Sequence record: PV173775
Length of the DNA: 64,000 nucleotides
Strand: one strand, 5' to 3'
Source of the DNA: Escherichia phage GEP001
Part shown: in pieces, positions 3,482 to 52,725 of the stretch
How the letters are laid out: each line of letters begins with the position of its first letter
Numbering within the stretch: position 1 is the first letter of the stretch
Program-made: the position numbers and the translations under genes
Notes under the pieces: generated by a model
The model's input: only the letters and a program-made list of their open reading frames with translations
What the model was told of the DNA's origin: nothing
The model's database searches: none

Positions 3482-3563
3482 ATACAAGTAATATAAATCT
3501 ATACTTAGGAAAAATAGATGATTCTGGACCTCTGGAATTCATTAAAAAATTTTTCACAAAATG

Positions 3564-3594
3564 GTTTACAAGACTGTTCCTCTGTGGTACTATA
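3564..3594 (+). promoter_or_regulatory. early promoter (GTTTAC -35, 18-bp spacer, TACTAT -10)
   Basis: gtttacaagactgttcctctgtggtactatac; matches the T4 early promoter pattern; 30-bp block nearly identical to promoter at 32737. Confidence 0.6.
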
Positions 3595-3627
3595 CAACTA
3601 TCAACTGATGCGGATTTGGAGAATGAA

Positions 3628-24020: not shown

Positions 24021-24050
24021 AGTTTAAAATTTTTTCATAAAACTATATAC

Positions 24051-24093
24051 ATCAGTAGTTGATTATGGTACTATATCAATATCAACTACTGAT
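24051..24093 (+). promoter_or_regulatory. promoter-like element with 13-bp perfect inverted repeat (atcagtagttgat / atcaactactgat) and TACTAT in the loop
   Basis: Read directly from sequence; no GTTTAC -35. Confidence 0.45.
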
Positions 24094-31725: not shown

Positions 31726-32215
31726 TTTGACTAGTGAAATGAAGGTCAAAATTGCTGATACAGCAAGATACTCTTTAAAACAAAACCCGAACCAGGATAA
31801 AGCAGAAGTTATTGAAAGATGCCGTATCGCTGTGTATGCAGAGTTTTTTGTAGCAGATTGGCTGAGCGGGTATGTTAATAAAGGTCAAGAGGATGTTAAT
31901 GACCCGTATACATATGCGTGGGATGTACTGGCGCATCCAAAATACTGCGGGCTTCGTGTAGAAGTCAAAACACATCAAACTGACTCACGTTGGATTTCGA
32001 TAACAACCGGATGCAGCGGAGAATATCCATACGGTTCTGGAATAAATCTAGGGCCCATTCTGAATCATCAAGTCGCTGACTGTATAATTATATTCAACAC
32101 TAAAGAAATTCATCCAGGTGTCATCCAGTACACTCCGAAGTTCATCGGTGATAGAGAAGACCTTCGCAAGGTTGTAAGAAAAAGCAACTACAACGGATGG
32201 TATCTTTCCATTTAA
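31658..32215 (+). CDS. denB: DenB endonuclease IV (dC-specific)
   Basis: 185 aa, same length as T4 EndoIV; position between rIIB and ndd. Confidence 0.7.
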   Translation: MQKTNPGLQRLFQIPTFTLSNNDLTSEMKVKIADTARYSLKQNPNQDKAEVIERCRIAVYAEFFVADWLSGYVNKGQEDVNDPYTYAWDVLAHPKYCGLRVEVKTHQTDSRWISITTGCSGEYPYGSGINLGPILNHQVADCIIIFNTKEIHPGVIQYTPKFIGDREDLRKVVRKSNYNGWYLSI

Positions 32216-32231
32216 AAATTTTCACAAAACG

Positions 32232-32261
32232 GTTTACATACCACAAGGACCGTGGTACTAT
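32232..32261 (+). promoter_or_regulatory. early promoter (GTTTAC, 18 bp, TACTAT)
   Basis: ggtttacataccacaaggaccgtggtactat. Confidence 0.6.
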
Positions 32262-32288
32262 ACAACTATCAGCTACGGAGGAGTAAAA

Positions 32289-32552: not shown

Positions 32553-32736
32553 GTTCATTATGGTGGTGTTTTGTTTGGTTAATTAGTATTCCATTAATTT
32601 GTTTAACATTTACTTTTGTGATGAGGTTATTATGAAAATTTTGAATTCTGTACTTATTGCTTGTGCGTGGTGGGTTGCGCAAGTTTCGGCAGTAGTGATT
32701 GGTATTCACATTTATTACGAATATTTTTAAAAAAGT

Positions 32737-32767
32737 TGTTTACAAGACTGTTCCTCTGTGGTACTAT
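32737..32767 (+). promoter_or_regulatory. early promoter (GTTTAC, TACTAT), near-identical copy of the promoter at 3564
   Basis: aaaaagttgtttacaagactgttcctctgtggtactat. Confidence 0.6.
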
Positions 32768-32795
32768 TACCCTATCAACTACGGAGGAACAGAAA

Positions 32796-34341: not shown

Positions 34342-35670
34342 ATGCAACTGAATAATCGCGATTTAAAAAGTATCATTGATAATGAAGCACTGGCTTATGC
34401 TATGTACACGGTTGAAAATCGTGCTATTCCAAATATGATTGATGGATTTAAGCCAGTCCAACGATTTGTTATTGCTCGAGCTCTTGATTTGGCGCGAGGA
34501 AATAAAGATAAGTTTCACAAACTCGCTTCTATTGCAGGTGGTGTAGCTGACCTTGGATATCATCATGGTGAAAACTCTGCGCAAGACGCGGGGGCTTTGA
34601 TGGCTAATACTTGGAATAATAACTTTCCTTTGTTAGATGGTCAAGGAAACTTTGGTTCTCGTACTGTTCAAAAAGCAGCAGCAAGTCGTTATATTTTTGC
34701 TCGTGTAAGTAAAAATTTCTATAACGTATATAAAGATACTGAATATGCTCCGGTACATCAAGATAAAGAACACATTCCGCCTGCTTTCTATTTGCCTATT
34801 ATTCCTACTGTTCTTCTTAATGGTGTTTCCGGTATTGCAACTGGTTATGCAACTTACATTCTTCCTCATAGTGTTTCTTCTGTTAAGAAAGCTGTATTAC
34901 AAGCTCTTCAAGGAAAGAAAGTAACTAAACCGAAAGTAGAATTCCCAGAATTTCGTGGTGAAGTCGTTGAAATTGACGGTCAATATGAAATTCGTGGAAC
35001 GTACAAGTTTACCTCACGAACCCAAATGAATATCACTGAGATTCCGTATAAGTATGATCGTGAAACTTATGTGAGTAAAATCTTAGACCCGCTTGAAGAT
35101 AAAGGCTTCATTACATGGGATGATGCTTGTGGTGAGCATGGCTTTGGCTTTAAAGTTAAATTCCGTAAAGAATATTCTTTGAGCGATAACGAAGAAGAAC
35201 GTCACGCGAAAATTATGAAAGACTTCGGGTTGATTGAGCGTCGTTCCCAGAATATTACCGTTATTAATGAGAAAGGAAAGCTGCAAGTTTACGATAACGT
35301 AGTTGATTTAATTAAAGACTTTGTTGAAGTTCGTAAAACTTATGTCCAAAAACGAATTGATAATAAAATCAAAGAAACTGAATCAGCATTTCGTTTAGCC
35401 TTTGCCAAGGCACATTTCATTAAGAAAGTGATTTCGGGTGAAATTGTTGTACAAGGTAAAACTCGCAAAGAACTGACCGAAGAACTTTCTAAAATTGAGA
35501 TGTATTCTTCTTATGTTGATAAACTAGTCGGAATGAATATTTTTCATATGACTTCTGATGAAGCAAAGAAACTTGCTGAAGAAGCTAAAGCTAAGAAAGA
35601 AGAAAACGAATATTGGAAAACTACTGATGTAGTTACAGAATACACCAAAGATTTAGAGGAAATCAAATGA
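34342..35670 (+). CDS. 52: DNA topoisomerase II medium subunit gp52 (GyrA-like)
   Basis: 442 aa; recognised as T4 gp52. Confidence 0.95.
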   Translation: MQLNNRDLKSIIDNEALAYAMYTVENRAIPNMIDGFKPVQRFVIARALDLARGNKDKFHKLASIAGGVADLGYHHGENSAQDAGALMANTWNNNFPLLDGQGNFGSRTVQKAAASRYIFARVSKNFYNVYKDTEYAPVHQDKEHIPPAFYLPIIPTVLLNGVSGIATGYATYILPHSVSSVKKAVLQALQGKKVTKPKVEFPEFRGEVVEIDGQYEIRGTYKFTSRTQMNITEIPYKYDRETYVSKILDPLEDKGFITWDDACGEHGFGFKVKFRKEYSLSDNEEERHAKIMKDFGLIERRSQNITVINEKGKLQVYDNVVDLIKDFVEVRKTYVQKRIDNKIKETESAFRLAFAKAHFIKKVISGEIVVQGKTRKELTEELSKIEMYSSYVDKLVGMNIFHMTSDEAKKLAEEAKAKKEENEYWKTTDVVTEYTKDLEEIK

Positions 35671-35816: not shown

Positions 35817-35822
35817 TTTTAG

Positions 35823-35840
35823 GGAGAGCCTCGGCTCTCC
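35823..35840 (+). other. RNA stem-loop ggagagc-ctcg-gctctcc (no U tract)
   Basis: 7-bp perfect stem read from sequence. Confidence 0.5.
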
Positions 35841-35869
35841 AAAGCATACTGTGGTACTATACAACTATC
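35839..35869 (+). promoter_or_regulatory. motA promoter-like element (TACTAT -10, no GTTTAC); 31-bp copy also at 52406-52436
   Basis: ccaaagcatactgtggtactatacaactatc. Confidence 0.5.
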
Positions 35870-50457: not shown

Positions 50458-50773
50458 TATTCGTCCGGTCGATGAGACCGGTCTTTCAGAAAAAGAACTT
50501 TCAATTAAGAAAGAAAAGGATGAAATAGCAAAGCTTCTTGATCGTCAAGAAAATGGATTTATTATTGAAAAAATGGTAGAAGAGTTTGGAATGAGTTATC
50601 TTGAAGCTACAACAGCATTCTTGGAAGAAAATTCTATTCCTGAAACTCAATTTGCTAAATTTATTCCTTCGGGTATAATTGAAAAAATTCAGTCAGAAGC
50701 TATTGACGAAAATCTTTTACGTCCTTCTGTTGTTCGTTGTGAAAAAACTAATACATTAGATTTTCTACTATGA
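50435..50773 (+). CDS. 33: gp33 late transcription co-activator
   Basis: 112 aa from MTQFSLNDIRPVDETGLSEKELS...; recognised as T4 gp33. Confidence 0.85.
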   Translation: MTQFSLNDIRPVDETGLSEKELSIKKEKDEIAKLLDRQENGFIIEKMVEEFGMSYLEATTAFLEENSIPETQFAKFIPSGIIEKIQSEAIDENLLRPSVVRCEKTNTLDFLL

Positions 50774-51423
50774 TTAAACTCCGCATGCCTGCTGGTGGTG
50801 AAAGATATATTGATGGTAAATCAGTTTATAAATTATACTTAATGATAAAACAACATATGAATGGAAAGTATGATGTAATTAAGTATAATTGGTGCATGCG
50901 GGTGTCTGATGCCGCTTATCAAAAGCGAAGGGATAAGTATTTTTTCCAGAAGTTATCAGAAAAATATAAATTAAAGGAACTTGCTTTAATCTTTATAAGC
51001 AATCTTGTTGCTAACCAAGATGCTTGGATTGGTGACATCTCTGACGCTGATGCACTTGTGTTTTATCGTGAATATATCGGACGCTTAAAGCAAATTAAAT
51101 TTAAGTTTGAAGAAGATATTCGCAACATTTATTATTTTAGTAAAAAAGTTGAAGTTTCTGCTTTTAAAGAAATCTTTGAATATAATCCAAAAGTTCAATC
51201 AAGTTATATTTTTAAACTACTTCAATCGAATATAATTTCGTTTGAGACGTTTATCTTGCTTGATTCGTTTTTAAATATAATTGATAAACATGATGAACAG
51301 ACTGATAATTTAGTCTGGAATAATTATTCTATAAAGTTAAAGGCTTATAGAAAAATTTTAAATATTGATTCGCAGAAAGCTAAAAGTGTTTTCATTGAAA
51401 CTGTGAAATCCTGCAAGTATTAA
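50770..51423 (+). CDS. 59: gp59 helicase loader
   Basis: 217 aa, same as T4 gp59; MIKLRMPAGGERYIDGKSVYKLYLMIKQ... Confidence 0.9.
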   Translation: MIKLRMPAGGERYIDGKSVYKLYLMIKQHMNGKYDVIKYNWCMRVSDAAYQKRRDKYFFQKLSEKYKLKELALIFISNLVANQDAWIGDISDADALVFYREYIGRLKQIKFKFEEDIRNIYYFSKKVEVSAFKEIFEYNPKVQSSYIFKLLQSNIISFETFILLDSFLNIIDKHDEQTDNLVWNNYSIKLKAYRKILNIDSQKAKSVFIETVKSCKY

Positions 51424-51445
51424 TTGCTTATTATAAATAGATTAT
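51424..51445 (+). promoter_or_regulatory. gene 32 promoter cluster: MotA-box-like TTGCTTA plus late TATAAATA (51432-51439)
   Basis: taattgcttattataaatagattataat. Confidence 0.5.
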
Positions 51446-51489
51446 AATTATCTCACTGACCAGCTATGAGGTCATACATCGTCATAGCA

Positions 51490-51522
51490 CCAACTGTTAA
51501 TTAAATTAAAAAGGAAATAAAA
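51490..51522 (+). promoter_or_regulatory. gene 32 AU-rich translational operator and RBS
   Basis: ttaattaaattaaaaaggaaataaaaATG; gp32 is known to autoregulate its own translation. Confidence 0.5.
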
Positions 51523-52701
51523 ATGTTTAAACGTAAATCTACTGCTGAACTCGCTGCACAAATGGCTAAACTGGCTGGAAATAAAGGTGGTTTTTCTTCT
51601 GAAGATAAAGGCGAGTGGAAACTGAAACTCGACAATGCGGGTAACGGTCAAGCAGTAATTCGTTTTCTTCCGTCTAAAAATGATGAACAAGCACCATTCG
51701 CAATTCTTGTAAATCACGGTTTCAAGAAAAATGGTAAATGGTATATTGAAAACTGTTCATCTACCCACGGTGATTACGATTCTTGTCCAGTATGTCAGTA
51801 CATCAGTAAAAATGATTTGTATAACACTGACAATAAAGAGTACGGTCTTGTTAAACGCAAAACTTCTTACTGGGCTAACATTCTTGTAGTAAAAGACCCA
51901 GCTGCTCCAGAAAATGAAGGTAAAGTATTTAAATACCGTTTCGGTAAGAAAATCTGGGATAAAATCAATGCAATGATTGCAGTTGATGTTGAAATGGGTG
52001 AAACTCCGGTTGATGTAACTTGTCCGTGGGAAGGTGCTAACTTTGTACTGAAAGTTAAACAAGTTTCTGGTTTTAGTAACTACGACGAATCTAAATTCCT
52101 GAATCAATCTGCGATTCCAAACATTGATGATGAATCTTTCCAGAAAGAACTGTTCGAACAAATGGTTGACCTTTCTGAAATGACTTCTAAAGATAAATTC
52201 AAATCGTTTGAAGAACTGAGCACTAAGTTCAGTCAAGTTATGGGAACTGCTGCTATGGGTGGTGCCGCAGCAACTGCCGCTAAGAAAGCTGATAAAGTTG
52301 CTGATGATTTGGATGCATTCAATGTTGATGACTTCAAAACAAAAACTGAAGATGATTTTATGAGCTCAAGTTCTGGCAGTTCATCTAGTGCTGATGACAC
52401 GGACCCCAAAGCATACTGTGGTACTATACAACTATCGGCAATACTGCTGATGATGATTAAAGAGGAAAATAACATGGCTAAAATTGATATTGATGTTGTT
52501 GATTTTGAATATATTGAAGAAATTATTCGTAATCGTTATCCTGAACTCCGTATCATAAGCGCACTAAATGATCCTAATTGCAATGTTTCAGTTGTTATTG
52601 AAGGTCCTTTAAATCGTCTTAAACAATTTATGATTAATGAATATTGTGACGGTATGGATGCTAAAGATGTAGAATTTTACACAGGATTTATTGAGCAGTA
52701 A
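51523..52701 (+). CDS. 32: gp32 ssDNA-binding protein, as encoded a 392-codon read-through ORF
   Basis: First 294 aa recognised as gp32 (zinc site, ...[14 protein letters not shown]); no stop follows and the frame continues into the 75-codon ORF beginning MAKIDIDVV. Confidence 0.85.
52474..52701 (+). CDS. 75-codon ORF with its own RBS (AAGAGGA), in frame with gene 32
   Basis: [75 protein letters not shown]. Confidence 0.5.
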
Positions 52702-52707
52702 TTATCA

Positions 52708-52725
52708 AGGGGCTATCAAGCCCCT
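52708..52725 (+). terminator. stem-loop aggggc-tatcaa-gcccct
   Basis: 6-bp GC stem; weak U tract. Confidence 0.4.

Follow-up and report, generated by a model that had tools for sequence, protein, structure and literature searches.

An apparent gene 32-frd.3 fusion in a T4-like phage record is best explained as a record-cleaning artefact

The closest described counterpart of the locus considered here is the gene 32/frd.3 region of bacteriophage T4, in which gene 32 ends in an acidic tail and a stop codon and is followed by a terminator and the early promoter of frd.3. Two further systems bear on it. T4-type phages carry PeSL (promoter-early stem-loop) cassettes, and PeSL events are recombination events between homologous PeSL copies (PMC2839356, PMC4122927). 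The other system is man-made, the terminator ends of the Omega interposon and of mini-Tn5 elements (Prentki & Krisch 1984; Fellay, Frey & Krisch 1987), for which PMC6381291 mentions strong transcription terminators as flanks.

The window, a stretch of 64,000 nucleotides from Escherichia phage GEP001 (PV173775), is a segment of a T4-like (Tequatrovirus) genome in the orientation opposite to that of the T4 map. Its gene 32/frd.3 region resembles that of T4 in its flanks, which are 96-99% identical, in the gene order 59, 32, frd.3, frd.2 and onwards, and in a 31-mer that forms the normal spacer/-10/+1 part of the promoter there too. In contrast to the window, T4 keeps 106 bp that hold the tail codons, the stop, the terminator and the UP/-35 region. 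Gene 59 directly precedes gene 32 in the window (Table 1); the homing-endonuclease gene segG, which lies between the two in T4, is absent, as it is from most of the relatives examined.

The most conspicuous feature of the locus is a single open reading frame of 392 aa, in which gp32 residues 1-294 (ending ...SSSSADDTD) continue through 23 linker codons into the full 75-aa Frd.3 (MAKIDIDVV...). Both domains were recognised by Pfam within this one ORF: gp32 (PF08804) at residues 40-240 with E=2.9e-66, which places the Zn-containing OB-fold core domain in it, and Phage_FRD3 (PF05798) at residues 318-392, covering positions 1-75 of the 75-position profile. The gene 32 part is ~98-99% identical to gene 32 in JE01, P8 and others. 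The first-pass annotation had reported an in-frame join of gp32 to a downstream 75-codon ORF with a ribosome binding site and start codon of its own, and translation, the Pfam hits and the sequence agree with it on each of these points.

That annotation had also pointed to a shifted frame reading ...GNTADDD-stop, which is indeed present as the -1 frame, and had named recoding as one way to read the locus. On this reading ribosomes would shift at GAC-CCC-AAA and gp32 would terminate at the -1 frame TAA, the fusion being either a minor product or a regulated one. Peptidyl-tRNA-Pro slipping back by one base on C-CCC would pair again without mismatch and enter the alternative tail. However, the zero frame (GAC-CCC-AAA-GCA) holds no canonical X-XXY-YYZ heptamer, a stimulatory structure is lacking, the position of the junction varies by 1 nt from record to record, and ~97% of relatives have a plain stop; the CCCC run itself is there because two unrelated ends were joined. 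A site of recoding is therefore very unlikely, and we rate it lowest among the readings considered.

Table 1. Positions of the features discussed, in window coordinates.
Feature	Position	Strand	Basis and remarks
motA.1 terminator hairpin (GGGAGAGCC tcg GGCTCT...), 3' end truncated, T-run absent	35822..35838	+	comparison with T4 and P8
motA scar (scar 2), 41-42 bp missing (CCCTTTTTTATTTTAAAAATTTTTTCACAAAACGGTTTACAA in T4)	35838..35839	.	indel list of window against P8; T4
motA early promoter remnant: spacer end, -10, +1; second copy of the 31-mer	35839..35869	+	
Gene 59	50770..51423		
Interval between genes 59 and 32, segG absent	51424..51522		
Run-on ORF, 392 aa	51523..52701	+	translation, Pfam
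Gene 32 codons 1-294 and first base of the next codon; core and most of the acidic C-terminal domain, end ...ADDTD	51523..52405	+	ORF list, Pfam, relatives
Gene 32 scar (scar 1), 106 bp missing	52405..52406	.	alignment with T4, JE01 and others; search with VecScreen parameters
frd.3 early promoter remnant: 13-nt end of spacer, extended -10 (TGG TACTAT), +1 region; first copy of the 31-mer	52406..52436	+	native, compare JE01
TACTAT of the extended -10	52422..52427		
frd.3 5' leader, read as linker codons in the run-on ORF	52437..52473	+	identical leader in intact relatives
TAA of the -1 frame (...GNTADDD-stop)	52458..52460		
frd.3 ribosome binding site AAGAGGA	52460..52466		
frd.3 ORF, 75 aa and stop, ATG at 52474	52474..52701	+	PF05798; separate gene of 228 nt, annotated in T4 and JE01
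TAA stop of the run-on ORF	52699..52701		
Indel of 10 nt in the hairpin 3' of frd.3	52710..52719		window against P8

Alignment with T4 and JE01 shows that the window lacks 106 bp, TGGATGACC...GTTTACAA, between 'acggacc' and 'ccaaagc'. Lost with them are the last 8 codons of gene 32 (LDDLLNDL) and the TAA, which T4 has in this place, the terminator hairpin GGGGACCCTAGAGGTCCCC with its T-run, and the A/T-rich UP region and -35 (GTTTAC) of the frd.3 early promoter. No terminator-like site and no -35/-10 promoter is left at the gene 32/frd.3 junction, and no second copy of the gp32 tail or of the terminator was found elsewhere in the window. The flanks are matched by ~500 Tequatrovirus records, in nearly all of which the match is interrupted by an extra ~105 bp; the tail and terminator segment is present in 482 of ~498-501 such records (~97%).

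The 31-mer CCAAAGCATACTGTGGTACTATACAACTATC that follows the junction occurs exactly twice in the window, where 0 copies are expected by chance, and the exact second copy upstream of motA had been correctly noted before. Its interpretation as a ~32-bp promoter-like insert in the acidic tail was mistaken. The intact JE01 has the identical 31-mer in the same place, directly after GTTTACAA, and in T4 the 31-mer follows the -35 of the motA promoter; the element is native, and it is the 106 bp 5' of it that are missing.

The tip that is lost is a conserved one, L-D-D-L-L-x-x-L, which can be followed from Tequatrovirus through Acinetobacter and Vibrio phages. In the form L-[DN]-[DA]-L-L-x-x-L, directly followed by a stop, it was found in gp32 of T4/JE01, Mosigvirus, Marfavirus, Gaprivervirus, Acinetobacter and Vibrio phages. 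Such conservation suggests that the extreme tip of gp32 may be functionally important, and one would not expect a viable phage to have lost it. The acidic tip and the stop that mark gp32 are absent from the run-on ORF, an absence that we attribute to excision. The tips themselves read LDDLLNDL, LDDLLAGL, LNDLLNGL or LDALLADL(ELDE), while the remainder of the tail varies freely among distant T4-like phages.

A second gap lies 16.5 kb away. Over the 46 kb compared between the window and its best relative, P8 (96.1%), there are only two sizeable non-coding gaps, the one at gene 32 and one of 41 bp upstream of motA. The order at motA in T4 and P8 is hairpin, T-run, UP region, GGTTTACAA and 31-mer, whereas in the window the 31-mer follows the hairpin directly. 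Here the hairpin has lost its end and its T-run and the motA early promoter its UP region and -35, and as written the record leaves motA without an early promoter.

Both affected loci are composites of terminator hairpin and early promoter and in this resemble PeSL cassettes. A collapse of the assembly graph at repeated promoter/terminator (PeSL) blocks could appeal to the 5' promoter block, repeated several times per genome, and to the long near-identical repeat that the gene 32 and motA loci share in T4-type genomes. Yet 64 nt of the missing gene 32 sequence (tail and hairpin) are unique, with no other copy in the window, and none of their k-mers occurs in the junction partner, so that a repeat collapse cannot delete them. 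Such a collapse would exchange flanks and not remove unique sequence, the other copies of the repeat are intact, and different laboratories and assemblers would not arrive at the same base-exact ends. We consider a de novo assembly error highly improbable, more so than the genuine deletions discussed below. Of the readings offered by the first-pass annotation, assembly error nonetheless came closest: the sequence record does appear to be wrong, but through excision of cassette-matching spans after assembly and not through mis-assembly. PeSL-mediated recombination was rejected as well, as the left junction at gene 32 lies in unique coding sequence and, in contrast to PeSL events, involves no homology between copies.

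The two gaps are not peculiar to the window. At least eight GenBank phages carry both: SP21535, ZN18, B1.1, phiC600P9, Sfk20, CrRp10, IME537 and TB004. A query made from the motA junction only, which finds a seed match solely where the motA gap is present, matched exactly SP21535, ZN18, B1.1, phiC600P9, Sfk20, CrRp10 and IME537, and TB004 has the gap with one extra base. The phages with the motA gap are thus the phages with the gene 32 gap, a co-occurrence of 8/8. In SP21535 and TB004, these are the only two gaps against P8 in the region compared. The gene 32 junction is the same as in the window or differs by 1 nt in phiC600P9, vB_Eco-B1.1 and CrRp10, annotated with a gp32 CDS of 1179 nt, and in TB004, Sfk20 and SP21535, where a gap of 105 nt gives gp32 a different C-terminus; IME537 and ZN18 share the left end and have a different right end. 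Each genome has one and the same right end at its two loci: an 'a' that TB004 keeps at both is dropped at both in the window. The count of 482 out of ~498-501 suggests some 4-7 further affected records beyond those named. An exact look-up of the run-on protein returned no match, and protein-homologue searches gave only Frd.3 or fragments. The junction was not found in IMG/VR and JGI metagenomes; IMG/VR holds a single intact Tequatrovirus junction, and its result is hence uninformative.

Recurrence of this kind could in principle reflect a real deletion hot spot in T4-like phages, which would remain viable after losing the gp32 tip, stop, terminator and promoter -35, with gp32 either fused to Frd.3 (the 106-bp form) or altered at its end (the 105-bp form). 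Eight phages, deposited independently and from several countries, do show the same type of junction. Moreover, gp32 keeps its Dda-binding helix (residues 248-270), and since defence systems, AbpAB among them, sense phage SSBs, selection could in principle act on altered gp32 tails. The distribution of the gaps argues against such a hot spot. Carriers do not cluster by flank SNPs and do not form a clade, and nearest relatives are intact: ECO07P4, nearest to SP21535, is 100% identical to it on both flanks, and pSs-1, nearest to Sfk20, is 98.9% identical. Every carrier of the gap at gene 32 also has the unrelated gap 16.5 kb from it, and the sequence lost there matches the same cassette (see below). 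Alignments with intact relatives revealed no microhomology at the ends of the gene 32 junction, the region shows no exceptional DNA folding (z = -2.0 and -1.3), and the tip that would be given up is conserved.

Several more specific routes to a deletion were rejected on the same comparisons. Slippage or microhomology-mediated deletion finds no repeat at the ends. Hairpin or cruciform excision could appeal to the imperfect inverted repeat that bounds the 105-nt segment; the folds, however, are unexceptional and do not consistently pair the ends. Among the carriers, three different and unrelated 16-nt promoter spacers adjoin the gene 32 junction, which rules out the spread of a single ancestral allele by homologous recombination, as do the lack of clustering among carriers and the intact near-identical relatives. 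Nor is a natural gp32-Frd.3 fusion inherited by a clade tenable, as the carriers are isolated, dispersed cases and the phages closest to them keep the two genes apart. Restriction sites (GGWCC, CCWGG) at the left end, hot spots for homing endonucleases or topoisomerases and excision of a PeSL circle were considered on paper only and are unnecessary given the cassette match.

This match was found in PLSDB, where the T4 gene 32 terminator segment is 100% identical, over exactly 117 nt, to sequence in three tagged or engineered plasmids, each with two inverted copies. In pIPO2T (mini-Tn5::luxABtet) the arrangement is ...gatccgg/TGGATGACC...GGTTTACAAGCATAAAGCTT/gctcaatcaatcaccggatccccgggaattc, the fragment ending in AAGCTT and polylinker standing on both sides, and the first base of the cassette fragment is the left edge of the gene 32 gap in the window. 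This is the make-up of an Omega-interposon-type end, in which polylinker adjoins the T4 gene 32 terminator fragment. The terminators of Omega and mini-Tn5 cassettes derive from T4 gene 32, as the identity computed here for the 117-bp TGGATGACC...AAGCTT fragment confirms. The cassette is a laboratory construct and the phage its natural source, so a 'vector match' in a T4-like genome is a false positive.

A vector screen was mimicked by comparing intact relatives with the cassette by blastn with VecScreen parameters (reward 1, penalty -5, gap costs 3/3, search space 1.75e12; an internal score of >=30 counts as 'strong'), the PLSDB copy of the cassette standing in for UniVec. In JE01 the search flagged 106 nt (1407-1512 of the extracted locus, L001) with a score of 88, strong, and cutting them out gives cacggacc/ccaaagcata, exactly the junction of the window. 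In P8 it flagged 104 nt (34954-35057; score 80), the removal of which gives ...acggacc/tctctgtt, the junction of SP21535. In pSs-1 the flagged span is 105 nt (score 87) and the right flank after the cut, tacaacaagg, is that of Sfk20. The region upstream of motA in T4 was flagged over 42 nt (CCCTTTTTTA...GGTTTACAA; score 42, strong), and here the cut gives ggctct/ccaaagcata, the motA junction of the window. Over 49 kb of P8, strong scores arose at the gene 32 and motA loci only, and the window lacks both spans. Scores of 19-20, below 'weak', were obtained for the remaining promoters of this family, which the window retains intact (3542-3572, 32219-32238). No residual match to the cassette turned up by the same search in the window, SP21535 or TB004.

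The missing spans are thus identical to cassette sequence, the search predicts the junctions of the window, SP21535 and Sfk20 base for base, only the strongly scoring loci are missing, and the two gaps occur together. Where the -35 block matches T4, the right end of the gap falls after GTTTACA(A); in ZN18 and IME537, in which the UP/-35 block has diverged from that of T4, it comes earlier, after the hairpin/T-run. That the right end tracks similarity to T4 fits a cut defined by similarity and not a biological hot spot. For a real deletion, the left end would have to match the boundary of a man-made fragment by chance and the right end the T4 similarity of each genome, at two loci. We accordingly regard a recurrent real deletion, and with it the real gp32 fusion that the first-pass annotation had considered, as very unlikely. 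The fullest version of that reading, in which the gaps are real and recurrent losses of the gp32 tip, the terminator/promoter cassette and the motA promoter block, the only SSB is a 44-kDa gp32-Frd.3 protein, perhaps selected by defence, and the match to the cassette boundary is chance, is slightly less probable again.

In our judgement the run-on gene 32 is an artefact of record cleaning and not a feature of the phage, which would have a normal gp32; we put the probability of this at roughly 0.93. The proposed course of events is as follows. A 117-bp stretch with the gene 32 terminator of T4 was built into the Omega interposon, mini-Tn5 and their vector descendants. As natural T4 sequence was borrowed for these cassettes, vector screens flag T4-like genomes that carry it, and screens of the VecScreen/UniVec type would report a strong internal 'vector' match at two places: the 3' end of gene 32 with the terminator and first half of the frd.3 early promoter, and a near-identical T-run/UP/-35 block 5' of motA. 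The flagged spans would then have been cut out and the ends joined, probably by a person or a pipeline acting on the screen. After a cut of 106 bp the frame by chance stays open through the promoter remnant and the ribosome binding site, in frame with frd.3; a 105-bp cut gives a different false tail. The phage itself would probably encode a 302-aa gp32 ending LDDLLNDL-stop, followed by its terminator, and have intact frd.3 and motA promoters.

Over-trimming after a vector screen accounts for gap ends that equal the ends of alignments made with VecScreen parameters and for the recurrence of the same pair of gaps in unrelated records. One detail sits less easily with it: TB004 keeps one extra base relative to the predicted cut at both loci, which would require an off-by-one cut. 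A search of the literature turned up no description of this VecScreen false positive.

Biologically, there is no consequence, as an ordinary gp32, terminator and promoters are almost certain in the phage. The case is rather a warning that natural T4 sequence borrowed for cloning cassettes triggers vector screens. T4-like genomes with base-exact holes have been deposited for at least eight phages, and three of the records belong to RefSeq: MG775043.2/NC_054899.1 (CrRp10), MT630408.1 and MZ681930.1 (phiC600P9), ON871820.1 (B1.1), MW822011.1 (TB004), MW341595.1 (Sfk20), PQ615101.1 (SP21535), MT179807.1/NC_054921.1 (IME537) and MN716856.1/NC_054945.1 (ZN18). The holes delete the motA promoter and create false 'single-stranded DNA-binding proteins' of 392 and 402 aa or false gp32 C-termini. 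The gp32 entries that we call artefacts are QNI20321.1, UTN90654.1 and AVX48065.1 (392 aa), QIW91319.1 (402 aa), QPP47024.1 (311 aa) and QIG57050.1 (false tail). Such entries can mislead surveys of domain architecture, catalogues of promoters and terminators, and training sets for machine learning.

The early promoters of the window deserve mention in their own right. The 3' block of the 31-mer, TGGTACTATACAACTATC, is common to four promoters in the window. It belongs to a sub-family in which a near-invariant 5' block, aaaattttttcacaaaacGGTTTACA, and this 3' block surround a hypervariable 16-nt spacer, with sites at 3542-3602, 24030-24083, 32210-32270, 32720-32776, 35839-35869 and 52406-52436. 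Spacers at one locus differ between close relatives, and the frd.3 spacer of Sfk20 resembles window positions 32238-32252, which hints at a possible PeSL-like exchange between early-promoter copies. In ZN18, a small ORF (MKFKIENEIV...) and not motA follows the motA.1 promoter remnant (200-350 of the extracted locus, L023); it looks like an extra gene inserted at the promoter cassette. Lastly, the window differs from P8 by a 10-nt indel, GGGCTATCAA, within the hairpin just 3' of frd.3 (aggggctatcaagcccct), the longer form of which is common to SP21535 and TB004.
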